Of a DNA stretch of 64,000 nt, positions 3,383-63,766 are shown in pieces. The stretch lies in the IMG/VR virus record IMGVR_UViG_2778260992_000001, one strand, 5' to 3'. Numbering within the stretch: position 1 is the stretch's first letter; each line of letters starts with the position of its first letter. The DNA is from a virus (lineage: Duplodnaviria; Heunggongvirae; Uroviricota; Caudoviricetes). Position numbers and translations under genes: made by a program. The notes beneath the pieces are model-generated. The model saw nothing but the letters and a program-made list of their open reading frames with translations. It had not been told where the DNA came from and made no database searches.

Positions 3383-4483
3383 TCACACTGCGCGGAATGC
3401 GATTTCGCCAGGTATTACTTCACCTTGCCAATACATTTGGGCAGCAACGCGATCTGCGAGGTCACGATAAATAGCCGTAAATTCGCTATCTGGACGACTA
3501 ATAACGGTTGGTGTTCCGTTATCCAGATCTTCACGAAGAGAGATATGAAGTGGCATTTGGCCTAACAACTGCGTGTTGTATTTCTCGGCCAGTTTCTGTG
3601 CGCCACCGGTGCCAAAAATTGGCTCGTGATGACCGCAGTTACTGCAAATATGCACACTCATGTTTTCAACGATACCCAGTACCGGCACTTCGACTTTTTC
3701 GAACATCACAATGCCTTTCTTCGCATCGATCAGCGCGATGTCTTGCGGCGTAGTTACCACAACCGCACCAGTTACAGGAATGTTCTGCGCCAGCGTCAAC
3801 TGAATATCACCAGTGCCCGGCGGCATATCGAGAACGAGATAGTCCAGATCAGGCCACAGTGTTTCCTGCAACATCTGCATCAGCGCCTTGCTGGCCATCG
3901 GTCCACGCCACACCATTGCATTGTCGTCGGTGACCAGATAACCAATAGAGTTGGTTGCCAGGCCATGAGACATGATAGGTGCCATGTGAGTACCGTCAGG
4001 TGAGGTTGGACGTTGGTTTTCCGAGCCCAGCATGGTTGGAATTGATGGACCATAGATATCGGCATCCAAAATACCAACTTTCGCACCTTCAGCAGCCAAC
4101 GCCAGTGCCAGGTTTACCGCCGTGGAGGATTTACCCACGCCGCCCTTGCCTGAGCTGACGGCGATAATGTTCTTCACGCCATTAATGCCTGGTTGGTTTT
4201 TGACGCGCTTAAGCGTGGCAATGTTGTACGACAGCTTCCAGTCAATAGCCTTTGCGCCAGTGATACGGAGCAGATCACCACTACATTGCTCTTTCAGGTC
4301 TTCAAAAGGCTTATTCCACACGAAAGGCATGATTAGTTCGACATGCAGTGTGTCATCCATCAACGCAACATGGTGTAACGCTTTAAGCGTAGTCAGGTTG
4401 TGTTTCAGGGTTGGGTGCTGAAAATTAGCCAGCGTACCGGCTACCATTGCTCTCAGGGCATCCGGCGATTTGGACTCGCTCAT
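3383..4483 (-). CDS. apbC: iron-sulfur cluster carrier ATPase ApbC/Mrp
   Basis: Walker A GKGGVGKSS, C-terminal CSNCGHHEP motif; near-identical to E. coli Mrp as recalled; divergent from metG. Confidence 0.92.
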   Translation of the reverse strand: MSESKSPDALRAMVAGTLANFQHPTLKHNLTTLKALHHVALMDDTLHVELIMPFVWNKPFEDLKEQCSGDLLRITGAKAIDWKLSYNIATLKRVKNQPGINGVKNIIAVSSGKGGVGKSSTAVNLALALAAEGAKVGILDADIYGPSIPTMLGSENQRPTSPDGTHMAPIMSHGLATNSIGYLVTDDNAMVWRGPMASKALMQMLQETLWPDLDYLVLDMPPGTGDIQLTLAQNIPVTGAVVVTTPQDIALIDAKKGIVMFEKVEVPVLGIVENMSVHICSNCGHHEPIFGTGGAQKLAEKYNTQLLGQMPLHISLREDLDNGTPTVISRPDSEFTAIYRDLADRVAAQMYWQGEVIPGEIAFRAV

Positions 4484-4640
4484 CCCGTCTCCTTTATTTT
4501 AATTTGCGCAATTGTCGCCTTGTAGTGTACTCCAGCTACGACATTTAATCATTTATGAGAAATGCTGTTATCACATGGCAGACATAAGGCCATTTTGTTA
4601 CTATCAAGCCCCTTTTCACTACAAAGAAGTAATGCCTACT

Positions 4641-6674
4641 ATGACCCAAGTCGCGAAGAAAATTCTGGTGACGTGCGCGCTGCCGTACGCTAACGGCTCA
4701 ATCCACCTCGGCCATATGCTGGAGCACATCCAGGCTGATGTCTGGGTTCGTTACCAGCGAATGCGCGGCCACGAGGTTAATTTCATCTGTGCCGACGATG
4801 CCCACGGTACGCCGATCATGCTGAAAGCACAGCAGCTTGGTATCACACCGGAACAGATGATTGGCGAAATGAGTCAGGAACACCAGACTGATTTTGCAGG
4901 CTTTAACATCAGCTATGACAACTATCACTCGACGCACAGCGAAGAGAACCGTCAGTTGTCCGAGCTTATCTATACTCGCCTGAAAGAGAACGGTTTTATT
5001 AAAAACCGCACCATCTCTCAGCTGTACGATCCGGAAAAAGGCATGTTCCTGCCGGACCGTTTTGTGAAAGGCACCTGCCCGAAATGTAAAGCACCGGATC
5101 AATACGGCGATAACTGTGAAGTCTGCGGCGCTACTTACAGCCCGACTGAACTGATCGAGCCGAAATCGGTAGTTTCTGGTGCTACGCCGGTAATGCGTGA
5201 TTCCGAACACTTCTTCTTTGATCTGCCTTCTTTCAGCGAAATGTTGCAGGCATGGACCCGCAGCGGTGCGTTGCAGGAGCAGGTGGCAAACAAAATGCAG
5301 GAGTGGTTTGAATCTGGCCTGCAACAGTGGGATATCTCCCGCGATGCGCCGTACTTCGGTTTTGAAATTCCGAACGCACCGGGCAAATATTTCTACGTCT
5401 GGCTGGACGCGCCGATTGGCTACATGGGTTCCTTCAAGAATCTGTGCGACAAACGCGGCGACACTACCAGCTTCGACGAATACTGGAAGAAAGACTCCAC
5501 CGCCGAGCTGTACCACTTCATCGGTAAAGATATCGTTTACTTCCACAGCCTGTTCTGGCCTGCCATGCTGGAAGGCAGCAATTTCCGCAAGCCGACCAAC
5601 CTGTTTGTTCATGGCTATGTGACGGTGAACGGTGCGAAGATGTCCAAGTCTCGCGGCACCTTTATTAAAGCCAGCACCTGGCTGAATCATTTTGACGCTG
5701 ACAGCCTGCGTTACTACTACACTGCGAAACTCTCTTCGCGCATTGATGATATCGATCTCAACCTGGAGGATTTCGTTCAGCGCGTGAATGCCGATATCGT
5801 GAACAAAGTGGTTAACCTGGCCTCCCGTAATGCAGGCTTTATCAACAAGCGTTTTGACGGCGTGCTGGCAAGCGAACTGGCTGACCCGCAACTGTACAAA
5901 ACCTTTACTGATGCTGCTGAAGTGATTGGTGAAGCATGGGAAAGCCGCGAATTTGGTAAAGCGATTCGTGAAATCATGGCGCTGGCTGATCTGGCTAACC
6001 GCTATGTCGATGAACAGGCTCCGTGGGTGGTGGCGAAGCAGGAAGGGCGCGATGCCGATCTGCAGGCGATTTGCTCTATGGGCATTAACCTGTTCCGCGT
6101 GCTGATGACGTACCTGAAACCGGTACTGCCGAAACTGACTGAACGTGCAGAAGCATTCCTGAATACAGAACTGACCTGGGATGGTATCCAGCAACCGCTG
6201 CTGGGCCATAAAGTGAATCCGTTCAAGGCACTGTATAACCGCATCGACATGAAGCAGGTTGAAGCACTGGTGGAAGCATCCAAAGAGGAAGTAAAAGCCG
6301 CTGCCGCGCCAGTAACTGGCCCACTGGCAGATGATCCGATTCAGGAAACCATCACCTTTGACGACTTCGCCAAAGTTGACCTGCGCGTGGCTCTGATTGA
6401 AAACGCGGAGTTTGTCGAAGGTTCTGACAAACTGCTTCGCCTGACGCTGGATCTCGGTGGCGAAAAACGTAATGTCTTCTCCGGCATTCGTTCCGCTTAT
6501 CCAGATCCACAGGCACTGATTGGTCGTCACACCATTATGGTGGCCAACCTGGCTCCGCGTAAAATGCGCTTCGGTATCTCCGAAGGCATGGTGATGGCTG
6601 CTGGCCCCGGCGGGAAAGATATCTTCCTGTTAAGCCCGGATGCTGGTGCTAAACCAGGCCACCAGGTTAAGTAA
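4641..6674 (+). CDS. metG: methionine--tRNA ligase
   Basis: 677 aa from ATG at 4641 (track start 4512 is TTG); HIGH-like ANGSIHLGH and KMSKS motifs; matches E. coli MetG as recalled. Confidence 0.95.
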
Positions 6675-8079: not shown

Positions 8080-8225
8080 CGGTTGCAACTTATTGATAAT
8101 GGCGGTCACAATTTGATTCTTTTCTATAAGAATCCGTTGATCGCCACTACTCCCCTTCCATACCTGCAATCATACCCTTAAATATCAATAGGTTATGGTT
8201 GTTTATACAAATAAGAAAACAACTA

Positions 8226-8945
8226 AATAACAGATCAACGAAACGTCAACGCTTTCACCCGATTTGGTCTAAAAAATTGACGTTTTCACACATCACTTCT
8301 TATACCCGTAACTCTACGCAGCAGACAGCGCCACAGCGTCCAATTTTCACCACAGACGACCCAACACACTACCAACAAAAACACACGCTCAAAATCGCTC
8401 CCGTTGCGTTACGCAACCATATAAACAACTTATTTTCAGGCATAACAAAACAACTAAATAACACACATGCCATTCCCAAAAACAACCAACCTCTTTATGG
8501 CAGGCTACCGAAAAGACCCACCTCTTCTCCCCAGGCTACCGGACAACCAACCTAACTTTCACAGGCAATCCGAAAACATTCATACGCGCGATACCCACGA
8601 CACGCCATTACCCAAACAGCGAAGAAATACCAGACTCACTGAAACCCCAACGAAGCCTGTTACCGCAAGGATTCTCTCAATCCCAAAAGACACGAAACAG
8701 AACAATCACGGGAAACGCCATTACCCAATACACGAATAACTACAAAAGCCTTTCAGGCACTCCAGACAAACAACTCAAACACAATAACGAAAGCAATCGC
8801 CCACCTGCCATTACTCCATACACGGAGAAGAACAATCACCAAAACGACGAGAACACCCCATAGAAGAACCACCGCAAAACGAACGAAACCACATACACCG
8901 ACAGAGAAAACAACACACCCAATTCACCAACAGAAATAGTCGCCG
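8226..8945. other. noncoding A+C-rich (G-poor) strand-skewed region
   Basis: About 0.7 kb without credible ORF; plus strand dominated by CAAC/ACAA/AAC runs. Confidence 0.55.
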
Positions 8946-9140
8946 TATAGGACATTCTGGAAGGAGTGAGCATTAACGCCTATAGAGAGGTTGAGACAGA
9001 TAAAACACAACATGTATAGCGAAGAAGCCAGGTATGTATAAGTGGGGATGGAAGGAGGGGTGTCGCCTCCTTTTTCGTATTTATTCAACTCCTGATTTTA
9101 TCCCCCGTAACACCCCTACGGTCAGCCTTCGGTCCATACA

Positions 9141-12741: not shown

Positions 12742-12748
12742 CTGAGAA

Positions 12749-12772
12749 GAGGGCCAGAAACGGCCCTTTCTC
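12749..12772 (+). terminator. rho-independent terminator
   Basis: GGGCC-AGAAAC-GGCCC plus TTTCTCT. Confidence 0.6.
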
Positions 12773-12790
12773 TATAGCCACCAGCTGCCG

Positions 12791-12909
12791 CAGGGAAATT
12801 TTCAGAAACGGCGAGGAACGTATTCATGAGCCGACGGGAAACGGCCAGGATTTTTTCGGGAAACGGCTGCATTCGCCTTTATGTAGAAAAAACATCGGGA
12901 AGCTGGTGG
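12791..12909. repeat. iteron array 2: GGAAACGGC-like repeats
   Basis: Strong copies near 12805, 12839, 12861 plus degenerate ones; convergent intergenic region. Confidence 0.55.
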
Positions 12910-13287
12910 AATCCAACCAGCGGTTGTCGGACAGGTGAGCGGGGAAAATTATGATGACTTTCGTCACCTGAGACATCCAGATTTCTTTCGTAGCATAATC
13001 ACATACGTGATTAAGTGGTGTGATTATGTGAAAAATCACGCGCACATAATACGCGAGCGGATACAGAACAAAACAAAATGCCGATCCGCACCGACAAATA
13101 AACGCGGATCACATAGCAAGACTAAAAGCCAATGATTAACCATACTCTATAGCGCAATATAACGCGTTTTAAGCGCGTTAATGTGTTAAGTAATGGGTAT
13201 GTACTGGCAAGGATATAAAAGCGCGTCTATGGCGTTATTTTGGTGCTTATTTTTATGTTGTTGGAGTGAGTTAAAGACAATAAAAAA

Positions 13288-13310
13288 CGCGCCATTGATG
13301 GCGCGTTATT
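13288..13310 (-). terminator. rho-independent terminator (minus strand)
   Basis: GCGCCATTGATGGCGC hairpin with T6 on minus strand. Confidence 0.6.
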
Positions 13311-13330
13311 GTGGAAGTATTGGAAACGAA

Positions 13331-13350
13331 AAAAGCGCCCATAGTGGGCG
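13331..13350 (-). terminator. rho-independent terminator (minus strand), GCGCCCATAGTGGGCGC
   Basis: Hairpin plus T-run on minus strand, just past stop of ORF 13358..13588; identical hairpin at 13831. Confidence 0.65.
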
Positions 13351-13357
13351 CTCGATT

Positions 13358-13588
13358 TTATTTATGTAAACTGATTTCAAATCCCATTTCTACAAACGCT
13401 TTCAGCATTAAAAATATATCAGCGTCGTTCACGTCTGCTTTTTTTCGCTCCTGGTCGCTCAATAAGTCAATTTTGCGCGTCGTTTCATCTATAAGCTCGA
13501 CTGCGCGCCCAGCGTAACCAGCGATCCCAGCGATGCGATTAACATAATATTCGTTATGGACGTTAACGCCAGCGATAAGAACAAACAT
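13358..13588 (-). CDS. hypothetical protein (AT-rich accessory gene)
   Basis: ORF track; AT-rich codon usage; own terminator. Confidence 0.45.
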   Translation of the reverse strand: MFVLIAGVNVHNEYYVNRIAGIAGYAGRAVELIDETTRKIDLLSDQERKKADVNDADIFLMLKAFVEMGFEISLHK

Positions 13589-13608
13589 GATTAAGCTCCT
13601 TAAAAAAA

Positions 13609-13812
13609 TTAAATAGAATTTTGAAGTTTTCCAATTAATGCGCTTAAACGTAAGTATTCACGTTTGCGCTTGCAATCTCGCTTGCTGTTAAGCAAATCAG
13701 AAAACGTAAAATTTAATTGGTCGCGTTGCGCGATTAAATCATCGATTAATTCTAGTTTATAAGCGCGATACTTTGCGCGATATTCCGCGCGGATCTTGTC
13801 ATAGCTGACCAT
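13609..13812 (-). CDS. hypothetical basic protein
   Basis: Track ORF 13609..13857 trimmed to internal Met so the start is not inside the 13831 hairpin. Confidence 0.4.
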   Translation of the reverse strand: MVSYDKIRAEYRAKYRAYKLELIDDLIAQRDQLNFTFSDLLNSKRDCKRKREYLRLSALIGKLQNSI

Positions 13813-13830
13813 TTTCAAAGCTCCTTTAAA

Positions 13831-13850
13831 GCGCCCATAGTGGGCGCTTG
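13831..13850 (-). terminator. hairpin GCGCCCATAGTGGGCGC (second copy)
   Basis: Identical to 13331 hairpin; directly past stop of ORF 13861..14511. Confidence 0.5.
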
Positions 13851-13860
13851 ATTCCATTAA

Positions 13861-14511
13861 TTACGCTTTGAAAGCATCAGCTAAATAATTGTAGAAATCA
13901 TTTTTAATGAAGCGATATTGCTGAGTACCAGCTTTCGCGCTCCCAGCTCCTTTGACTTTTTCAACAAGTCCAAGACGTTCGCAAAGATTGATCAACTGGT
14001 TGGCTTGAGTATAACCAGCGTCCAATTTAATTTCACACGCTTTTTTAGCTTCATTCATTAAATCGAAAACAGCGCCATTAGTGAACGTGTCGATCTCGTC
14101 GTTAATCATATCGATTAAAGCGAATACACGAGATCCAGACATATCAGCGATGGAATAAACGCATTTACCAGATTTAATTGATTTAACCAGATAAACCAGT
14201 TTTTCCAGAGAATAACTATTAGTCATTGCATCACGGAAAAATACTTCTGGCGCTTGTTTGCTTGCTTTAATCGCATAGTAGAAAACAGAGCATAATTTTT
14301 CGTCTTCTACTGCGTTTACGACGTTGTTGATGAAGTAAGCAAGTTTAGTGGTCGCAGCTTGCATATTTGCTTTGTCTGCTTTAGTGTGCGTACCATTTTT
14401 ATAATGTTCGTTATATGTTTGAGTTGCCAGATCTGCTTTTTCGCGCAGTTCATCGGATACAATGGAAGCAGCTTCAATGATGGATTTTTTAGAAATGATA
14501 ATGTTAGCCAT
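13861..14511 (-). CDS. hypothetical protein, possible winged-helix C-terminus
   Basis: 216 aa; C-terminal LINLCERLGLVEK..QQYRF resembles a winged-helix DNA-binding segment (weak); monocistronic, AT-rich. Confidence 0.45.
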   Translation of the reverse strand: MANIIISKKSIIEAASIVSDELREKADLATQTYNEHYKNGTHTKADKANMQAATTKLAYFINNVVNAVEDEKLCSVFYYAIKASKQAPEVFFRDAMTNSYSLEKLVYLVKSIKSGKCVYSIADMSGSRVFALIDMINDEIDTFTNGAVFDLMNEAKKACEIKLDAGYTQANQLINLCERLGLVEKVKGAGSAKAGTQQYRFIKNDFYNYLADAFKA

Positions 14512-14756
14512 GATAATTTTTCCTTATGTAAATTTAAAATTTATTGTCGTTAGCGTCTTCGCTTTCGACGAGTTCAATTATCGATATGCGAAAAAAGATT
14601 GCAAGTGTTTTTTTTAAATTTTTTGCAGGGATGAAAGTCCTAGAAATAAAAGCGAGATCGTCGAAGGTGTTCCCTAAATAAATAATCGATTGCGGCTTTA
14701 GACCTTATATATATTTAGGTTATTTGATTTGTAGATATAAAGAAGTGATGTGAAAA

Positions 14757-14782
14757 ATAATAACCGGACTTAGCCGGTTATT
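14757..14782 (-). terminator. rho-independent terminator (minus strand)
   Basis: TAACCGG..CCGGTTA hairpin plus T-run on minus strand past stop at 14795. Confidence 0.6.
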
Positions 14783-14794
14783 AACCTTATAGAT

Positions 14795-15103
14795 TTATTG
14801 AACAGAATCTACAGCCTTACGATTGGTGTCAAATAGCGCATCAACGAACTGTGCCGATGACTCGCTAGATTCGCAATCCAACATTGCCCGTTCTTCATTT
14901 GCCACTTTCTTACACAGTTCTACATTCTCACCTATCGCTTTTCCTGCTTTTACGGCTGCCGAAAATTGATACATGCAAACTGATACATTCTGAGACGTTG
15001 AGCACACGTCATTCATCAGCGACTGAATGACAGGCTTATAGTCCATTGCATTTGCCGCAACTGAGCAAAGTAAAAATAATGGTGGTAACAATATCGATTT
15101 CAT
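14795..15103 (-). CDS. secreted Cys-containing small protein
   Basis: N-terminal signal peptide MKSILLPPLFLLCSVAANA; several Cys in the mature part. Confidence 0.55.
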   Translation of the reverse strand: MKSILLPPLFLLCSVAANAMDYKPVIQSLMNDVCSTSQNVSVCMYQFSAAVKAGKAIGENVELCKKVANEERAMLDCESSESSAQFVDALFDTNRKAVDSVQ

Positions 15104-15106
15104 AAC

Positions 15107-15631
15107 TCAAAAAGGCAAAATTCGTTCAACCCAATCGAACAAAACAACTATTTTTCTACCGTTCTCGACACGTAGTGTAACCTGACAAGCATCTGCGCCT
15201 GCTGACACCCCCTCAATTTCACGGCCATCCGCCATGTACACCCTTATAGATTTGTTTGCTTTGTAGGCTTGGTTGCAAATTGCAAAAAAATCGCGGCGTG
15301 ATGGCCGATTATCGACATAATCAGGGTGAACTGTTAGTCGACCTTTGAAATCGTGAGCGATACTGTCAACCACACCTGATTCAATTGTACTAATGCGTTC
15401 AAGTGGGAGCCTTATACGATTTTCTTTGTCAAAAGGGGCTGGGCAAAGGTCAACTTTGTTACGAGATGGCATGAGGCCATAAACGTACATGCAAAACGCC
15501 TGGCCATCTTCGAGAGTGACCCTTACAGGAATTTGTTCTCTGCGCCAGAACATCAGTAGTTTTTCAACGTTAGTGTAATCTCGCGGCCAGAGTTCAGCTT
15601 GGATACCGTAGGTAATATCTTTGGTTGTCAT
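15107..15631 (-). CDS. hypothetical protein
   Basis: Track ORF 15107..15709 trimmed to internal Met (MTTKDITYG) to avoid overlap with the lipoprotein gene. Confidence 0.45.
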   Translation of the reverse strand: MTTKDITYGIQAELWPRDYTNVEKLLMFWRREQIPVRVTLEDGQAFCMYVYGLMPSRNKVDLCPAPFDKENRIRLPLERISTIESGVVDSIAHDFKGRLTVHPDYVDNRPSRRDFFAICNQAYKANKSIRVYMADGREIEGVSAGADACQVTLRVENGRKIVVLFDWVERILPF

Positions 15632-15635
15632 GTCA

Positions 15636-16058
15636 TCACAGAGTTGTTGGCAGAATGTCGATGTCACCAGAATTGCTGGTGAACACCCTGAACGCTTTTG
15701 TGTCTCCATTCTTCAGAGTCGTTTCTCGCTCTTGACGAGCGGGGTTTAGAGCACATAAACCTGCACCTTCAAGAGATGCACCCACAATTAATTCTCCGGC
15801 ATTTAAATGAAAAGTCGCTTTTTCGCCTGTAGCCAGTTTTGCGACAGTTTCGCCATTGATGAAAATGGAAGCATCACATCCAGCTCCTACAAAACCTGTG
15901 TCTCTCATTACCACCAACGTAGCTGGCGCTGCGCTTTGATACTTGAACACTTTGGCCTGCGGTGCTGGTTTGGCGTCATGGATTGATATTGGACGTGATT
16001 GGCACGCGGTAAGCATCAACACTGGTAACGTTAGTAGAGGGAGAAGCGAGTATTTCAT
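15636..16058 (-). CDS. putative lipoprotein
   Basis: Signal peptide with lipobox LTAC (MKYSLLPLLTLPVLMLTAC); start moved to this Met. Confidence 0.55.
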   Translation of the reverse strand: MKYSLLPLLTLPVLMLTACQSRPISIHDAKPAPQAKVFKYQSAAPATLVVMRDTGFVGAGCDASIFINGETVAKLATGEKATFHLNAGELIVGASLEGAGLCALNPARQERETTLKNGDTKAFRVFTSNSGDIDILPTTL

Positions 16059-16126
16059 GTTAGTTTTAGAACAGAAAGTGAACAGTATGGGAGACTTCAT
16101 CTTTGTCTCCCTAATTGATAGCGTGA

Positions 16127-16405
16127 TTATTTTAATCTGCTTAATAGCGTTTCAAGATCTTCCTTTGTCATATTAGAGTTCTCATAGATACGCATGATTT
16201 TCTCACGAGTCTTAGCGGAAGCCCCGACAGAAGATATAACCTTGTCAAAGTCGGCCATTGTCAATTGTTCCAGAATGGTATTTATGACTTCAGCCTTAGA
16301 CATTTTGATATTTTTTTCTTTTAGTTTCACTTGAAACTTTCCAAGTTTGTCATTGGCCTTATCAGACAATGCTACCTGACAGTAAGTTGTTTTCTTTTCA
16401 CTCAT
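16127..16405 (-). CDS. hypothetical small protein
   Basis: ORF directly downstream of the helicase gene, same strand. Confidence 0.45.
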   Translation of the reverse strand: MSEKKTTYCQVALSDKANDKLGKFQVKLKEKNIKMSKAEVINTILEQLTMADFDKVISSVGASAKTREKIMRIYENSNMTKEDLETLLSRLK

Positions 16406-16407
16406 AA

Positions 16408-17967
16408 CTAATCTCGTTTCAGAACTCCAAAATCGAATGCTCCATCAATAGGCAATACACCTTCTGCAAAGCCAGGTGTGGTGTCGATGATGTGTTTTCG
16501 CTCATAAGAGTGAGACAACAGGTATTTGTTGCTAATGTCAATGAAATCAGTGATAAAACACACGTTTGCCTGATTTTTTTTGGCTCGTAAGCCACGACCG
16601 ACACGCTGTCTCATTTCAACTTCTGCTTTCCCACCACCAGCAAGAATGACCGCACCAACGCTTGGCACATCAACACCAACATCCAGAATAGTCGAGCCTA
16701 TTAAAACATCTATTTCACCAGACGCTAAACTATTCAGCTTTGCTTGCCTTGTCGTCTGGTTAGATTCCCCATAGATGAAATCAACTTTAAGACCTGACTC
16801 CTTCATCATCTCCATCAGGATTTGCCCGTGGCGTTTAAGACGAACCAGAGTCATGCAGTTGAGTGAATGTTGCTTATAAAGCAATGCCTCGCGCACTATG
16901 GCCTCGTTACGTCCCAAATTATACACGATCCCCAACTGATAAGCCTTTTGGTAGGCGGTGCTCATACCAACTCTAAAATTAAGGTGTTTGTTGGCAAGTT
17001 CCGCCTTGATTCTGACCTCGTCTGGCTTGTAAGCAACTTTATGATAAAGGAAGTACGGTTTTGCCAGAATGCCTCGATCAATCAGGTACTTTTCTGTGAC
17101 TTTAATTTCAATTCGACCGGCCACAGCCATCAGACGCATGTTGGCTTCTGTAGAATCCTTCATGAACGGCGTGGCCGTAAGCGCCAGACGATAGTCTGCG
17201 TTCACACATAATCTGGCAATGTCATAGAAATTAGAGCCTGAAGACTCATGCGCTTCTTCCAGAATAAGCAGAGACACACTTGAAAGGAAGCGTTTCACTA
17301 GCTCCCGACGTTTGAGGTGGTAGCTCTTTTTATCTGGTGTTGCATCGCGTGGTGGTTCTTCAAGGAAACTTGCCAGAGTTTGAACTGTAGCGACGTTGAT
17401 ATGTCGTGATACCTGGAACTCACCCGAGCCAATGACTCCAACCTTTTGGTCTTTTAACCACGGTTCGCCATTTTCGGCGCGGTAGTCGATGGATCTCTGG
17501 AAGTTTTCGGCCATTTGAAACATCAGAACAGAGCGGGTTGTTAAAAATAATGTCATTCGACCGATACGTGCAGCTGCTTTGCAGGCAACGTTAGATTTCC
17601 CGCCACCAGTAGCGATCTGCGCAATCATCATTCCCTCTCGAACCAGTGTTTCCACAGTCTGATCCTGATATGCATAATCAGGATTGTATGGGAATGGGTT
17701 AACCGCCGGATTTGGTTTACCAAGCGCCGGGGCTTTGTCTTTGCGGATATGAACACATTTGATGCCCGCCTTGTTCAAGTTCGCCGCTACAGGCTTGGCA
17801 AAGCCAGCAGGGAACGAGTTTTTACTCCAGTTGAACATCGTGCTTGTGCCCTTCCAGTCGCCAGTCTCGACTTCGTAGCTCAACATTTGCTGCACCAGTT
17901 GCTTTACCTTGTCATCTGCGCCAGAAATAAGCGCATTTACTGCGTTAGATACAATCCGAACAGTCAT
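16408..17967 (-). CDS. SF2 DEAH-type helicase
   Basis: Motif I ATGGGKS, motif II LEEAH, motif III TATP, motif VI QRVGRGLR. Confidence 0.8.
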   Translation of the reverse strand: MTVRIVSNAVNALISGADDKVKQLVQQMLSYEVETGDWKGTSTMFNWSKNSFPAGFAKPVAANLNKAGIKCVHIRKDKAPALGKPNPAVNPFPYNPDYAYQDQTVETLVREGMMIAQIATGGGKSNVACKAAARIGRMTLFLTTRSVLMFQMAENFQRSIDYRAENGEPWLKDQKVGVIGSGEFQVSRHINVATVQTLASFLEEPPRDATPDKKSYHLKRRELVKRFLSSVSLLILEEAHESSGSNFYDIARLCVNADYRLALTATPFMKDSTEANMRLMAVAGRIEIKVTEKYLIDRGILAKPYFLYHKVAYKPDEVRIKAELANKHLNFRVGMSTAYQKAYQLGIVYNLGRNEAIVREALLYKQHSLNCMTLVRLKRHGQILMEMMKESGLKVDFIYGESNQTTRQAKLNSLASGEIDVLIGSTILDVGVDVPSVGAVILAGGGKAEVEMRQRVGRGLRAKKNQANVCFITDFIDISNKYLLSHSYERKHIIDTTPGFAEGVLPIDGAFDFGVLKRD

Positions 17968-52039: not shown

Positions 52040-52807
52040 TTATGCCGCGCTAACACTATGTTCAGTCCTAACCACTCCAACCTTCACAAAAGGGCTACCG
52101 TAGCTTGGTGGCTTCTTGATTAATTTGCCAACATACAGTTTTCTAATATGCTCATCGGCTATTCTGCCAACAAATTCATAACGTTTTGTGTCGGGGCCAA
52201 GAGCTATATCCCTTGTAAAGTACTGCTGAGAACCGGCTTTGACCCAGCATTCAATCTGATAAACTTCCATTATCAGCCCACCATATGTAGCGTAGGCATA
52301 TTTGAGATTCTCGTCTCTTGGAACCTTTGCCCATACGCCACGCGTAGCTTCATATAATGCCAGAGCGGACATTCCTGACTTGTAGGTGCTGTTTAGCAGG
52401 AAGGCAAGACCGGCGTGCTCAGGAGCAATTTCAGTTTCCTCTTGCAGCACTAAGTGATGGTAGGCGTCCAGTGATATTCTGCCCATCATGGAACCACTTC
52501 CTCGTACCTTATTCGTAAGCTCTCCGACCCCCATAAGGTCGATGCATGTCGCCTCAACAAGTTTGGCTGTGGTTTCATCCATACCATGACGAAGTATATC
52601 TATGCCTAATTTTTTATTAGCCAAAAGTTCTTTGATCCGCATGGATTTGGGAGAGTCATCGGGATACTTGATGTGATCGAGACAACGAGTCGATTTGCCT
52701 TTTCCTATGTAAAACGGTCTTTTCATCTTGTCTTCTGTATCATAGAGACAGTAAACATAGTATTTAGCCTTATCCAATGATCTCGCGTATACCGATAAAT
52801 CGTCCAT
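52040..52807 (-). CDS. GIY-YIG nuclease-domain protein (possible homing endonuclease)
   Basis: N-terminal YVYCLYD..(11)..PFYIGKGK motif; opposite strand to neighbours. Confidence 0.6.
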   Translation of the reverse strand: MDDLSVYARSLDKAKYYVYCLYDTEDKMKRPFYIGKGKSTRCLDHIKYPDDSPKSMRIKELLANKKLGIDILRHGMDETTAKLVEATCIDLMGVGELTNKVRGSGSMMGRISLDAYHHLVLQEETEIAPEHAGLAFLLNSTYKSGMSALALYEATRGVWAKVPRDENLKYAYATYGGLIMEVYQIECWVKAGSQQYFTRDIALGPDTKRYEFVGRIADEHIRKLYVGKLIKKPPSYGSPFVKVGVVRTEHSVSAA

Positions 52808-55297: not shown

Positions 55298-56479
55298 ATG
55301 AGCCTTTATGTTATATCAACATTTAGGTTGGTCACAATATTGCCTGTTAAAAGTGGAATTATCGTGAGCGAGCTGAAAGAGCTAATTACCGAATTAGATT
55401 TTGAACAATGGTTGGATACTGAAGGTATCGTTTATCGACGTGGAGGCGTGAGTGCTCGCGGTCGTGAAGTGAATATCAAGGAGTGTCCGGTATGCGGCAG
55501 CTCCAACTGGAAGGTATATTTCAATCTGACCAGTGGCGTCGGTAAATGCTTCGCTGGTGATCATCCCGAAGAGATTCAGTTCAATAAGCTGGTCTTCCTC
55601 AAGCACTACAGCGGCAAATCACGACGACAGTTCGAGGAATATGTGCAGAACGCTCTTCTTTCCCAGGGGTGGGCACCAAAGAAAGAAGAGATAGTGCTTG
55701 CAAGCACAGTCGAGTTAGAGGGACCACTTGCACTCCCTCGTCATTACGAACTTCCTATAGATGGCCGTCTTCCAGACTATCTGGTTGAACGAAACATATC
55801 GCCTGAAATGGCAAAGTATTTTGACCTACGATACTGCGTCGAAGGCAAGCACGCTTATGTTGATCCGTATACAGATCAGGTTAAAGGACAGATATTCGAT
55901 ATGCGAATACTGATACCGGTTTACGATCTGGATGGGGTAATGAAGACATTTCAGGGGCGAGACATTACCGGTACAGCTGAACGTCGCTACCTCTTTCCTA
56001 TGCAGCTTCCAGCTTCAGGTAAGTTTCTCTACAACGGCCATAATGCGCTCGGCAAACAGACTGTAGTTGTCTGTGAGGGGGCGTTCGATGTTATGGGGGT
56101 TAAACGAGCTATTTTTGATGAAGAAACATTACGTGATTACGTGGAACCGATAGGAACGTTCGGGATGCATCTATCTGGCAACACCACTCAGGATGCAGAA
56201 GATCAGTTGGGCGCGTTCCTGACGCTCAAGGCGCGTGGATTACGTAATGTGATCATGATGTGGGATAGTGAAAAGCAAGCTATACGCAACACGATGGCCG
56301 CAGCCAGGCGATTGACCAGTATTGGTCTTAATGTCAAAGTTGCGTGTTTGGGCGAGGAAGGACTCGACCCCGGCGATGCGACACCGGGGCAGATTATCAA
56401 AGCCTACTATTGCGCAAAACCTTACTCACGACAGCTTGAACTTTTAAGCAAGGTAAAAGGTATAGCAGCATTAGTTTGA
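55298..56479 (+). CDS. DnaG-type DNA primase (zinc ribbon plus TOPRIM)
   Basis: CPVCGSS..(17)..KCFAGDH zinc-binding motif; TOPRIM-like VVVCEGAFDVMG and MMWDSE; start uncertain (ATG 55298 or GTG 55364). Confidence 0.7.
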   Translation: MSLYVISTFRLVTILPVKSGIIVSELKELITELDFEQWLDTEGIVYRRGGVSARGREVNIKECPVCGSSNWKVYFNLTSGVGKCFAGDHPEEIQFNKLVFLKHYSGKSRRQFEEYVQNALLSQGWAPKKEEIVLASTVELEGPLALPRHYELPIDGRLPDYLVERNISPEMAKYFDLRYCVEGKHAYVDPYTDQVKGQIFDMRILIPVYDLDGVMKTFQGRDITGTAERRYLFPMQLPASGKFLYNGHNALGKQTVVVCEGAFDVMGVKRAIFDEETLRDYVEPIGTFGMHLSGNTTQDAEDQLGAFLTLKARGLRNVIMMWDSEKQAIRNTMAAARRLTSIGLNVKVACLGEEGLDPGDATPGQIIKAYYCAKPYSRQLELLSKVKGIAALV

Positions 56480-57508
56480 ACCAGTATTAGTCACGTAAAC
56501 ATTGACCGAAAATGATTTAACTTCTGTGTTGAAGTTGTCAGTCATTACCGCGAGGTAGGCATTCTTGGTATCTCTGAATTGCTTCAGGATGATTTGAACG
56601 TTATCGGTGCAAACAAACGAGGTAGCCAGATTGCCTCCTTTCTCTGAAAAATCCTTTAGGAAAGTGCAGTCAATTTTGCCATCATTAGCGGTGAAGGTGG
56701 CATCATCACCCTGCCAGGTAAATGTTGCGTTAACGCCTTTATCAATGGATTTAGCAATAAGTCGTTGAGTGGAGGATTTTGCTTTAGATCTTGCTGCTGA
56801 TGGTTGGTATTTACCGCTTTCTTTTAGTTCTGCAATGTAATCACAGCCATTTTTATCTTCTTTATCGCAAGCTGCCTGATAAAGCTCAGCTGCTTTTTTA
56901 TAATCTTTTTTAACCCCTTCACCATACTCATACATAATGCCAAGATTCGCCAATGCAGATGCACTGCCTAGTTCGATTCCTTTTTTATAATACTCTATTG
57001 CCTTTTTGTAGCTTTTTGGCACGCCTGCGCCAACATAATATAACTGTCCTAAATATGACGCAGATTCAGGGTCGCCAGCCTCTACTGCAAGTTTGTGATA
57101 TTTCAGGGAAAGTTTTTGGTCTTTCTTACCCGCAAGTCCTTTATGATAAATAACACCCAGATTGTGATAAGAGTTGCCTCCAGCTGCATCACCAGCTTTC
57201 TTAAAGAGTTCCTCTGCCTTTTTGAAATTTTTATCAACCCCATACCCAAGGGCATACATTATACCTAGAGCATTAAACGCTTCTTTGTTCCCCTTAGAAG
57301 TCGCCAGTTCAAGCCATTTTCTGGCTTCATCGTAGTTTTTTTCGACACCATGAATACCTTTCATATAGTCGATACCTAAAGCACTCTGTGACTCAACGTC
57401 GCCTGCTTTTGCCGCATCGATCAGCTTTTGTATTTCATAGGCATGTGCACTCCCCGAAACAAGTAATAGCGACAACATAAAGAAAGATATTGGTTTGAAA
57501 TGTTTCAT
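56471..57508 (-). CDS. secreted Sel1-like repeat (SLR) protein
   Basis: Signal peptide MKHFKPISFFMLSLLLVSGSAHA; repeated A-x-x-LG-x-xY..G-x-GV..K/D..A-x-x-WY-like units; extra C-terminal domain. Confidence 0.7.
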   Translation of the reverse strand: MKHFKPISFFMLSLLLVSGSAHAYEIQKLIDAAKAGDVESQSALGIDYMKGIHGVEKNYDEARKWLELATSKGNKEAFNALGIMYALGYGVDKNFKKAEELFKKAGDAAGGNSYHNLGVIYHKGLAGKKDQKLSLKYHKLAVEAGDPESASYLGQLYYVGAGVPKSYKKAIEYYKKGIELGSASALANLGIMYEYGEGVKKDYKKAAELYQAACDKEDKNGCDYIAELKESGKYQPSAARSKAKSSTQRLIAKSIDKGVNATFTWQGDDATFTANDGKIDCTFLKDFSEKGGNLATSFVCTDNVQIILKQFRDTKNAYLAVMTDNFNTEVKSFSVNVYVTNTGSN

Positions 57509-61753: not shown

Positions 61754-61828
61754 GATGGTGTAGCTCAGCGGTAGAGCAGTTGGCTGTTAACCAACTGGTC
61801 GGTGGTTCGAATCCACCCACCATCGCCA
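61754..61828 (+). tRNA. tRNA-Asn (GUU)
   Basis: Manual cloverleaf: 7-bp acceptor GATGGTG/CACCATC, anticodon loop CTGTTAA, T-loop GGTTCGAATCC, 3' CCA; differs from E. coli tRNA-Asn. Confidence 0.8.
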
Positions 61829-61833
61829 ATTTA

Positions 61834-61920
61834 GGGGAGTTAGTCCGTAGAGGTAGCGGTGTAGACTGTAAATCTACTGTCATGGCGACTCGGGTGGTTC
61901 GACTCCATCACTCCCCACCA
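61834..61920 (+). tRNA. tRNA-Tyr (GUA), class II
   Basis: Acceptor GGGGAGT/ACTCCCC, anticodon stem-loop GTAGA-CTGTAAA-TCTAC, long variable arm, 3' CCA. Confidence 0.75.
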
Positions 61921-61924
61921 AATT

Positions 61925-62000
61925 GCCGGTTTAGCTCAGTTGGTAGAGCAGTCGCTTTGTAAGCGAATGGCCAGCGGTTCGAGTCCGTTAACCGGCACCA
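61925..62000 (+). tRNA. tRNA-Thr (UGU)
   Basis: Acceptor GCCGGTT/AACCGGC, D-arm GCTC..GAGC, anticodon loop TTTGTAA, T-loop TTCGAGT, CCA; one G-A mismatch at top of anticodon stem. Confidence 0.65.
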
Positions 62001-62224
62001 ATACAACGATAAGATCATTACGGTTAATCGTCGTTCATGTGCACAATGACTGGTCGAAAGGTAGTGATCTTACCGTTGTGGTGGATTCGCAGACTGATGC
62101 GATAGCTTTCTTGGATGTTAGGGAAATGCGGCCGCAAATCTTCCCTTTCGCGAGCGGTGATCGTCCGTAGTCCTAATTGGCTGCACCGTATGCCGGAGAT
62201 TCAGTACCGGCCACCACAACGGCC

Positions 62225-62311
62225 GGAGAGTAGGGAGCATGGTGCTCAAGCGGTCTTGAAAACCGTCCCATTGCGCAAGCGATGATGGTTCGATTCCATT
62301 ACTCTCCGCCA
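62225..62311 (+). tRNA. tRNA-Ser (UGA), class II (D-arm irregular)
   Basis: Acceptor GGAGAGT/ACTCTCC, anticodon stem-loop GCGGT-CTTGAAA-ACCGT, long variable arm, T-arm GATGG-TTCGATT-CCATT, CCA. Confidence 0.6.
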
Positions 62312-62503: not shown

Positions 62504-63766
62504 TTACTTTACATAGTCGCCCAGTTTTAATATTTCGCGCTTATATTCTTTAACCATGCTACTGGATTCAGTATAAATTCGATTTAAAAGATTATCGCTA
62601 TCTTTATTCTCATTTATCTTAATGAGTGATAATTTAAATTCATAGTCATCAAATGCCACAATCAAATGGTGGCCTGGGATTATATCTTCGTCACTCTTGA
62701 AGTATATATCTTCAAGTATGTAATCTAGTTGATTATATTTTCTTTTCTCGATGTAATCTTCAGCCATAGCTATTACATCATTCCTGTCATTTAACCTGTT
62801 TTTTTCGGAAGGCACATCTTCGTAATGTTGCACGATTGAACAACCAATAAGGCGTGGGATGTAAACGTCAAAATGAGTAACTCTATCATTCGCGGTTTTA
62901 AGTAGTTCCTCAAAGTAGTTTCTTACATGTAAAGGCAACTTCTCAAAGTAATCATTAATTATAGGAGAACAAGGAGTTTTATAATTCATAAGAACCGACG
63001 GTACGAGCTTTGGGTTTCGAAACATCCAGTCCCTTTTAACGTCCGATGGAACATAATAACTTTTAATGATATTATCAAAATAATTTATCATTCGAGATTT
63101 GAATATTTTGTTGAATCTAAGGTTTATGAATGCATCCAGATAAGGCATATCTGAATAAGCATCATCAAAAAATATTTCATCATTGAAAAAATCATATTTA
63201 TTCAATAAACAACACAGTTTTCCCGAATTAATATGTTCACAATAATCGATTTTTAATCCAAAGATAGCAATGATCAACTTCATCTGAGGTGGGATTTTGA
63301 AAATTAATTGTGACACATACGCTCTTTTTTCCTTTAGACATTCCCCATCAATATAAAATGAACTATCCACATACTCAAAAATATTAATAATATGCTTCAC
63401 ATACTGTATTACCTCATGCTGTTTTACCAATGGGTAATATAGTCTATGTAACTCATCGCTGTTTAAATTAACTTTGCGTTTATCGATAATTTGTTTTGCA
63501 AGAAGACATAGCTCATCATGTTGATTTAATAAGGAATCAAACCATTGTTTAAATGCACTCTTTCGCATTTCGAACAATGATTCTGTTGTTAATTGAAGGG
63601 CTGAAAAAGCTGCTTTTGCACTTTTTCTCGCTTCGTAGGCATTCCATGCTGTTGCTATAAAAGCAAATGCTGTAGCCAATGTTCCAACAATTTGACCATT
63701 TAAAACAACCCAATCCCAAAAAATCACGGTGAGCAGTAGTATAATAATGAAAATTAAAAAAGGCAT
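62504..63766 (-). CDS. AT-rich membrane-anchored protein of unknown function (420 aa)
   Basis: Two N-terminal TM helices then about 340-aa soluble domain; very AT-rich codon usage unlike flanking DNA; no recombinase or NTPase motifs seen. Confidence 0.6.
   Translation of the reverse strand: MPFLIFIIILLLTVIFWDWVVLNGQIVGTLATAFAFIATAWNAYEARKSAKAAFSALQLTTESLFEMRKSAFKQWFDSLLNQHDELCLLAKQIIDKRKVNLNSDELHRLYYPLVKQHEVIQYVKHIINIFEYVDSSFYIDGECLKEKRAYVSQLIFKIPPQMKLIIAIFGLKIDYCEHINSGKLCCLLNKYDFFNDEIFFDDAYSDMPYLDAFINLRFNKIFKSRMINYFDNIIKSYYVPSDVKRDWMFRNPKLVPSVLMNYKTPCSPIINDYFEKLPLHVRNYFEELLKTANDRVTHFDVYIPRLIGCSIVQHYEDVPSEKNRLNDRNDVIAMAEDYIEKRKYNQLDYILEDIYFKSDEDIIPGHHLIVAFDDYEFKLSLIKINENKDSDNLLNRIYTESSSMVKEYKREILKLGDYVK

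Follow-up and report, generated by a model that had tools for sequence, protein, structure and literature searches.

A conserved leftward gene arm with exchangeable slots and a FljA-like gene in an SSU5-type phage-plasmid

The leftward gene block and its relatives

We analyzed a stretch of 64,000 nucleotides (nt) of a Caudoviricetes virus (IMG/VR record IMGVR_UViG_2778260992_000001), hereafter referred to as the window, with a focus on a block of seven genes located downstream of a superfamily 2 (SF2) helicase gene. The genes are named G to A in the direction of transcription (Table 1). All seven leftward genes that the first-pass annotation of this sequence had listed were confirmed as open reading frames (ORFs) within positions 13358-16405. 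The start of E was assigned to the ATG at 15631, because it lies 4 nt past the F stop and gives the length of 174 amino acids (aa) annotated in relatives. A 200-aa ORF for E, which overlaps F, was rejected, and so was an 82-aa ORF for B, within which a hairpin and the Shine-Dalgarno sequence fall. For F, the start may be at 16100, which is preceded by a strong Shine-Dalgarno sequence, instead of at 16058.

Table 1. Coordinates of the genes and regulatory features in and around the block (positions refer to the window; bp, base pair)
Feature	Position	Strand	Length	Remarks
SF2 helicase	16408-17967			Pfam ResIII/DEAD/Helicase_C; directly upstream of the block
G	16127-16405	-	92 aa	Start 2 nt after the helicase stop
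Sigma-70-like promoter candidate	16126-16155	-		TTGAAA-18-AATAAT; in the 3' end of G, facing F-E-D; 10/12 positions, best consensus match of the region
F	15636-16058 or 15636-16100	-	140 aa or 154 aa	Lipoprotein precursor; alternative starts
E	15107-15631	-	174 aa	FljA family (Flag1_repress); start 4 nt after the F stop
D	14795-15103	-	102 aa	Secreted; start 3 nt after the E stop
Intrinsic terminator behind D	14758-14783	-		10-bp stem, then UUUUU; -12.6 kcal/mol, z -4.3
Region upstream of C	14512-14757	-		AT-rich (GC 0.31), conserved; promoter candidate, leader of ~58 nt, strong Shine-Dalgarno sequence, invariant blocks
Promoter candidate for C	14577-14604	-		TTGCAA-16-GATAAT
C	13861-14511	-	216 aa	N-terminal helical domain and C-terminal winged helix (model); most AT-rich gene of the block
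Palindromic hairpin AGCGCCCATAGTGGGCGCT	13830-13848		19 nt	Between C and B; -15.1 kcal/mol; tail only UUU
B	13609-13812	-	67 aa	Charged, looks helical
A	13358-13588	-	76 aa	Strong Shine-Dalgarno sequence
Tandem intrinsic terminators	13286-13352	-		End of the leftward arm; 13334-13352 (19-nt hairpin copy) and 13286-13307 (AACGCGCCA-N4-TGGCGCGTT); U6 after each

Over its full length, the region from 13000 to 17000 shares 98.4% identity with Escherichia phage CMS-2020a, and it partially matched Escherichia phages Cyrano and PhiR41_1, Salmonella phage SSU5, and several Klebsiella phage-plasmids. Y. pestis pMT1 and S. Typhi pHCM2 likewise carry a counterpart of this region. On the basis of these matches, the window was assigned to the phage-plasmids of the SSU5/pHCM2/pMT1 type, that is, to the SSU5 supergroup described by Pfeifer et al. 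(PMC7969092). All genes of the block were compared by tblastn with those of seven relatives (Cyrano, SSU5, PhiR41_1, Klebsiella pJN2-26, Y. pestis pMT1, S. Typhi pHCM2, and CMS-2020a SCU-175). These and the window are the eight elements considered below, and their hosts are Escherichia, Salmonella, Klebsiella, and Yersinia.

In SSU5 (SSU5_119 to SSU5_124), pHCM2, and pMT1, the locus has the same layout, with the helicase gene, a 92-aa gene, a 140-aa lipoprotein gene, a FljA-like gene, and a 216-aa gene followed by small genes, and it has the same hairpins. The window differs from these three in that F and E are only 77-83% identical and G only 62%, both A and B are present, and the hairpin between G and F has been lost. 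The sequences and annotations of the locus are already public; SSU5_121 is annotated as "putative repressor of phase 1 flagellin" and SSU5_122 as "lipoprotein".

Persistent genes and exchangeable slots

The helicase gene, G, E, and C were found in the same order in all seven relatives. A more distant element, the helicase of which is 81% identical, showed the order of helicase, a G-like gene, cargo including a lipoprotein, and a FljA-like gene at 43% identity. Prevalence was expressed as the number of PLSDB records per gene. The helicase was found in 1003 records (Klebsiella 346, Escherichia 229, Acinetobacter 153, Enterobacter 92, Yersinia 62, and Salmonella 49), C in 815 (Klebsiella 346, Escherichia 217, Enterobacter 91, Yersinia 62, and Salmonella 49), and E in 831 (Klebsiella 341, Escherichia 229, Enterobacter 92, Yersinia 62, and Salmonella 60), and the per-host counts of C and E closely follow those of the helicase. 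F and D were found in 421 and 259 records, corresponding to approximately half and a third of the family, respectively. G (phrog_1466, E 5e-46) was present in all seven relatives at 52-86% aa identity, being persistent and fast-evolving. A (phrog_1585) was present in five of the seven, two of these at only 50% identity, and B (phrog_6145) in four; the two genes occur singly, together, or as a 50%-identical variant. From the PLSDB counts and the presence in relatives, C and E are classified as persistent genes and F, D, A, and B as shell genes.

The block represents an arm of leftward genes that follows the helicase and is conserved in the SSU5 supergroup of phage-plasmids, with G, E, and C as the persistent genes. 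It has three exchangeable slots: one between G and E, filled here by F; one between E and C, filled here by D; and a hairpin-bracketed slot behind C, filled here by B and A. In relatives without F, the G-E slot holds other orphan genes, including lipoproteins and a secreted protein, and the proteins encoded in this slot had no match in Pfam and PADLOC.

The ratio of nonsynonymous to synonymous substitution rates (dN/dS) was 0.02-0.2 for all genes, indicating purifying selection. In the comparison with Cyrano, PhiR41_1, and CMS-2020a SCU-175, the dS values were 0.06-0.29 for the helicase and C and 1.0-1.5 for G and E (67-86% aa identity). Given the high values of G and E and the low values of the helicase and C, it was concluded that the G-to-E segment has been exchanged for a divergent set of alleles originating within the family.

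The FljA-like protein E

E matched the Pfam family PF03614 ("Repressor of phase-1 flagellin", FljA) over its full length with an E-value of 1.5e-84 and 282.4 bits against a cutoff of 24; residues 5-171 were aligned to profile positions 1-170 of 170. This family includes FljA of the Salmonella fljBA operon, fljA-z66 of plasmid pBSSB1, and the fljA/flkB-type genes of E. coli; E is of the same length as FljA (approximately 175-179 aa). For the pairwise comparison, Salmonella FljA was represented by a member of the cluster designated "phase 1 flagellin gene repressor FljA" by NCBI. The two proteins were 34% identical over 175 columns, again at full length (E 4e-36), and they share N-terminal, central, and C-terminal motifs (WPRDY, PSRRDxFxIC, and FDWVxRI). 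A PDB sequence search with E yielded no useful match.

The structural model of E (predicted local distance difference test score (pLDDT), 82; predicted template modeling score (pTM), 0.80) consists of two tandem units, each with one helix and five strands. Each unit has the Sm/Hfq-like arrangement of an N-terminal helix followed by a five-stranded bent beta-sheet. A plasmid-borne fljA has been reported to block the translation of fliC messenger RNA (mRNA) and to make motile E. coli non-motile (PMC2652032), and the tandem Sm/Hfq-like fold predicted for E fits this action. Because of the family membership and the fold, E is likely to be an RNA-binding translational repressor.

The FljA family is very small. 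Among 1.84 billion proteins, it comprised 26 clusters, of which 14 had E-values up to 1e-10, and six of the ten top clusters were also retrieved by the search for phage-plasmid homologues. A literature search on fljA combined with phage-plasmid, SSU5, pHCM2, or Klebsiella found no study discussing gene E in phage-plasmids. What is new at this locus is a FljA homologue apart from any flagellin gene, which is persistent in a phage-plasmid family, including non-flagellate hosts, and for which the structural model supports a tandem Sm fold. The rest of the locus is ordinary phage mosaic architecture.

The envelope proteins F and D

F carries the lipobox LTAC (Cys19 in the short form) with Gln at position +2 and has two further conserved Cys residues. 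The lipobox is kept as L(S/T)(A/G)C in nine homologues, confirming the lipoprotein that had been proposed from the LTAC motif. F matched phrog_890 ("lipoprotein", E 9e-52), and a sub-threshold match to DUF2846 was obtained for seven of ten homologues, which is weak but consistent. A PDB search with the F profile gave no useful match, and a word-indexed search with F returned only members of its own family.

D begins with the predicted signal peptide MKSILLPPLFLLCSVAANA, followed by MD; the n, h, and c regions and an AxA site were recognized by inspection, placing cleavage after ANA. The homologue in pHCM2 and a distant analogue from Klebsiella both retain the signal peptide and the four Cys residues of the mature part, so that the earlier description of D as a Cys-containing protein with a signal peptide also holds. 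D matched phrog_9536.

F resembles the superinfection-blocking phage lipoproteins (T5 Llp and the Cor family) in being a small, phage-encoded lipoprotein of the outer-membrane type on a temperate element. It differs from them in that no sequence similarity was detected, PHROGs and Pfam giving only "lipoprotein" and the sub-threshold DUF2846. F and D may be envelope-directed conversion proteins, with receptor masking or superinfection exclusion as possible roles. Among 5,426 complete E. coli genomes, 90 had the F-E-D module on plasmids.

Across the family, the FljA-like gene is repeatedly accompanied by a neighboring lipoprotein gene. In relatives without F, such genes are located at L001 5206-6006, L004 4399-4836, and L011 2131-2586, and tblastn and Pfam did not link them to F. 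Two of these three alternative slot lipoproteins have Asp at position +2 (inner-membrane type).

Transcription units and hairpins

Intrinsic terminators, defined by a GC-rich hairpin followed by a U tract, were found at 13353-13333, 13307-13286, and 14783-14758. The first two form the tandem terminator behind the last gene, and the hairpins at 13334-13352 and 13286-13307 have folding energies of -15.5 and -16.3 kcal/mol, respectively. Irrespective of the gene that precedes it, the terminator behind D shows almost no variation among the eight elements, and it is part of the conserved region upstream of C. The hairpin at 13830 has only a short U tail, did not pass the terminator scan, and is a weak terminator at best. 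Because this tail is followed by the Shine-Dalgarno sequence of B, transcription probably reaches B and A by read-through.

The first-pass annotation had described three identical or near-identical hairpins that split the block into separate transcription units. The hairpins are real, but two of the three lie outside 13358-16405, forming the tandem terminator. These two do end the arm; the hairpin at 13830 would rather act as an attenuator or stabilizer, with no clean boundary, and the terminator behind D had been overlooked.

The sequences at 13334-13352 and 13830-13848 are an identical 19-mer that occurs nowhere else in the window (0 matches expected by chance), and both copies are embedded in a 34-nt direct repeat. 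Both copies and the third hairpin were found in all eight elements with unchanged stems. On sequence grounds, the 19-mer may have a sequence-specific role besides termination, as a protein-binding site or a recombination joint; the latter could apply as the 19-mer hairpins bracket the variable A/B slot. The stems of the 19-mer are unchanged although neighboring genes have dS values above 1, and some copies have the 3-nt loop flipped (TAG to CTA).

The gap between the preceding stop and the start is 4 nt for E and 3 nt for D, and neither gene has a Shine-Dalgarno sequence, which suggests translational coupling; the 4-nt junction of F and E is the same in pMT1 and pHCM2. With the promoter-like site in the 3' end of G, these close starts, and the terminator behind D, F-E-D would form one moron-like transcription unit. 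The unit resembles phage morons or lysogenic-conversion cassettes in having a promoter-like site upstream and a terminator downstream, in the variable presence of F and D, and in that the G-E slot is filled in relatives by unrelated lipoprotein or secreted-protein genes. Unlike in morons, the middle gene E is not variable, and the terminator belongs to the conserved upstream region of C, not to the cargo.

Behind the tandem terminators, positions 12742-13285 are a non-coding spacer of approximately 540 nt between convergent gene sets, with further terminator-like hairpins on the minus strand at 13111-13082 and 13055-13039. A spacer of approximately 600 nt is present at the matching place in the Klebsiella pJN2-26 record.

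Gene C and the small proteins

In the structural model of C, a helical N-terminal domain is followed by a C-terminal winged helix (a helix-turn-helix and then a beta-hairpin wing), which bears out the winged-helix C-terminus that had been suggested for this 216-aa protein. No sequence family was found for C. Its homologues matched only winged-helix families in Pfam, all below the threshold, and a Foldseek search of the model against BFVD returned only domain-level winged-helix matches, none with E < 0.001. PDB sequence searches with C and with G yielded no useful match. Judging from the model, C is probably a DNA-binding protein of the backbone.

The alignment of the region upstream of C, the length of which is 250-320 nt, had a mean column identity of 75% and long invariant runs over the four host genera. 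The invariant blocks between the D terminator and the C promoter candidate (14605-14757, minus strand), such as AAATATATAAGG and ATTTATTTAGGNAACACCTTCGA, are conserved over the same genera. A search of the whole window with Rfam found transfer RNAs (tRNAs) only. By eye, the sites of translation initiation of C and fliC look alike, agreeing at 10 of 18 positions, but this was attributed to a Shine-Dalgarno sequence plus AT-rich background.

A and G were assigned only to PHROGs of unknown function. The PHROG label of B, "MIT family metal ion transporter", was rejected as implausible, because B is a 67-aa charged protein without a hydrophobic segment.

Base composition

The GC content was 0.401 for the block and 0.462 for the window, and that of 13358-14511 was at the 2.5th percentile among segments of equal size. 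The mean GC content at third codon positions (GC3) was 0.387 for the seven genes, compared with 0.475 (standard deviation 0.067) for the 63 other ORFs. The block is the run of seven consecutive genes with the lowest GC3 in the window (permutation P = 0.03; Mann-Whitney P = 4e-4), and G has a GC content of 0.355. The GC and GC3 profile thus showed that the AT-rich composition and codon bias reported earlier are real, at a modest to moderate level.

The low GC content of C, B, and A was seen in every relative, including those with backbones of 50% GC, and the lower GC3 of D to G was seen only in the E. coli-type backbone. Since all relatives share this bias of C, B, and A, it is ancestral and no mark of recent import. 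The AT signal of the block thus combines an ancestral property of conserved genes with a lineage effect. AT-richness alone is a poor guide to cargo here, as the most AT-rich genes are the most conserved ones.

Proposed function and alternative explanations

We read the block as a conserved backbone arm with exchangeable slots for envelope proteins, a moron-like F-E-D unit, and an RNA-binding FljA-like protein E, and we assign a probability of approximately 0.6 to this reading as a whole. F, E, and D would be transcribed together from the sigma-70-like site in the 3' end of G up to the terminator behind D, C would be expressed from its own conserved promoter candidate, and B and A would be reached by read-through of the leaky hairpin before the two strong terminators end the arm. 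E would act post-transcriptionally as an RNA-binding repressor in the manner of FljA. In flagellated hosts (E. coli and Salmonella), its most obvious target would be the fliC mRNA, the repression of which would cut the flagellation of the carrier. F and D would act at the envelope as conversion proteins, possibly with receptor masking or superinfection exclusion, and C would serve as a DNA-binding protein of the backbone.

Several observations weigh against this reading. Both promoters are consensus matches only, the structural models were built on shallow alignments of 19-21 sequences, and F and D had no match to characterized exclusion proteins in scans of Pfam, PHROGs, PADLOC, and NCBIfam. 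The defining context of fljA is absent. The conjugative E. coli plasmid pJH51-2 has the classical pair of a flagellin gene followed by fljA; E is not downstream of a flagellin gene, the gene upstream is that of the lipoprotein F, and no flagellin gene was found in the window by tblastn with FliC and a plasmid flagellin. The E. coli K-12 fliC leader and start gave only chance 9-12-mers when compared with the window, and no cis target of E on the element was identified by this comparison or by RNAalifold upstream of C, which detected no covarying structure except the terminator. Flagellin as a conserved target is also at odds with the distribution of E, since 341 Klebsiella and 62 Y. pestis plasmids are among the 831 that carry it, and Klebsiella and Y. 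pestis make no flagella. Furthermore, S. Typhi CT18, the carrier of pHCM2, still expresses H:d flagellin.

The target of E may be host fliC or a transcript of the phage-plasmid, and the latter is at least as likely, because E is kept under purifying selection in the Klebsiella and Y. pestis elements. In a stronger form of this alternative, E is no flagellin repressor but part of the phage-plasmid's own post-transcriptional control, acting for example on lysis-lysogeny, copy number, or a neighboring gene, and the flagellin-linked fljA genes of chromosomes and plasmids are a derived, domesticated branch. Persistence in approximately 830 plasmids, including those of the non-flagellated Klebsiella and Y. 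pestis, agrees with such a role, as do the purifying selection on E, the position kept in the distant relative at 43% identity, the very small family with six of its ten top clusters shared with the phage-plasmid search, and the lack of a flagellin gene in the window. However, the element yielded no candidate target, allelic differences in E are not mirrored in the conserved leader of C, and the repression of fliC is the only experimentally known activity of the family; we regard this alternative as plausible, at somewhat worse than even odds. The remaining alternatives concern the entire block. In one of them, G and C, and possibly also A and B, would be early replication or regulation proteins that belong with the helicase and ParB-like genes, the block being phage housekeeping plus a few inserted morons. 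The spacing of 2 nt between the helicase stop and the start of G, the strong conservation of the promoter candidate and upstream region of C, and the divergent neighbors, which encode two ParB_N proteins and an ABC-type ATPase, are in line with this, and the winged helix of C is a fold common to MarR/ArsR regulators and Cdc6/ORC. The winged-helix fold is generic, however, and sequence searches revealed no resemblance to families with a role in replication, partition, or repression. Word-indexed searches with C and F gave family members only, and the arrangement of helicase, G, and FljA-like gene was not recovered outside SSU5-like elements, the sensitive full-library search having been made for E. 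This makes a housekeeping role doubtful.

All seven genes had been taken in the first-pass annotation for one horizontally acquired, AT-rich cargo island for superinfection exclusion, defense, or anti-defense. The low GC3 of the seven-gene run, the variable presence of the envelope proteins F and D, and the recombinational replacement of the G-to-E segment would suit a cargo island, and part of the claim stands in that F, D, A, and B are variable and the G-to-E segment has been exchanged. Against an island of cargo, the order of G, E, and C is shared by all relatives, the prevalence of C and E matches that of the helicase, the low GC content of C, B, and A is an ancestral trait, and a far stronger compositional outlier is located elsewhere in the window (62504-63766, GC 0.319). 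The orthologues are thus conserved in position, and none of them has a known replication or structural role. The suggested defense or anti-defense functions were not borne out, as proteins A to G matched no known defense family among the PADLOC models at a whole-protein E < 0.005, only the helicase matching generic helicase models such as PbeA; an NCBIfam scan of the seven proteins returned nothing significant. We therefore consider a single acquired island improbable.

The implications of the preferred reading depend on the target of E. If E acts on host fliC, carriage would alter motility, susceptibility to flagellotropic phages, flagellar serotype, and visibility to TLR5. With a target on the element itself, E would represent a new kind of Sm-like regulator that controls the phage-plasmid life cycle post-transcriptionally. 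SSU5-type phage-plasmids are frequent in clinical Enterobacteriaceae. A more speculative idea, which we put forward only tentatively, is that the FljA family is not primarily a device for flagellar phase variation but a core tandem-Sm RNA-binding regulator, retained even in non-flagellated hosts, of the very common SSU5-type phage-plasmids, from which the flagellin-linked fljA of Salmonella and E. coli was captured, or that carriage silently lowers the translation of host flagellin and so alters motility, H-antigen typing, and sensitivity to flagellotropic phages.

Other features of the window

A 420-aa ORF on the minus strand at 62504-63766 (GC 0.319) has the lowest GC3 among all ORFs of the window and no Pfam match, and it adjoins four tRNA genes (Asn, Tyr, Thr, and Ser; 61754-62311). 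This ORF is a better candidate for truly foreign cargo than the seven-gene block. In the otherwise rightward late region, two leftward genes at 52040-52807 and 56471-57508 (both minus strand) encode a GIY-YIG domain protein and a Sel1-repeat protein (GC 0.404), respectively.

On the plus strand, approximately 750 nt at 8200-8950 are strongly rich in A and C and poor in G and T (GC skew -0.35, AT skew +0.31), with no long ORF and no tandem repeats; this stretch could be related to replication or give rise to a non-coding transcript. Positions 4512-6674 encode a full-length methionyl-tRNA synthetase (Pfam tRNA-synt_1g, E 5e-166). Divergent to this gene, a Mrp/ParA-type NTPase gene is located at 3383-4483, and the pair was also found in Cyrano, PhiR41_1, and CMS-2020a.

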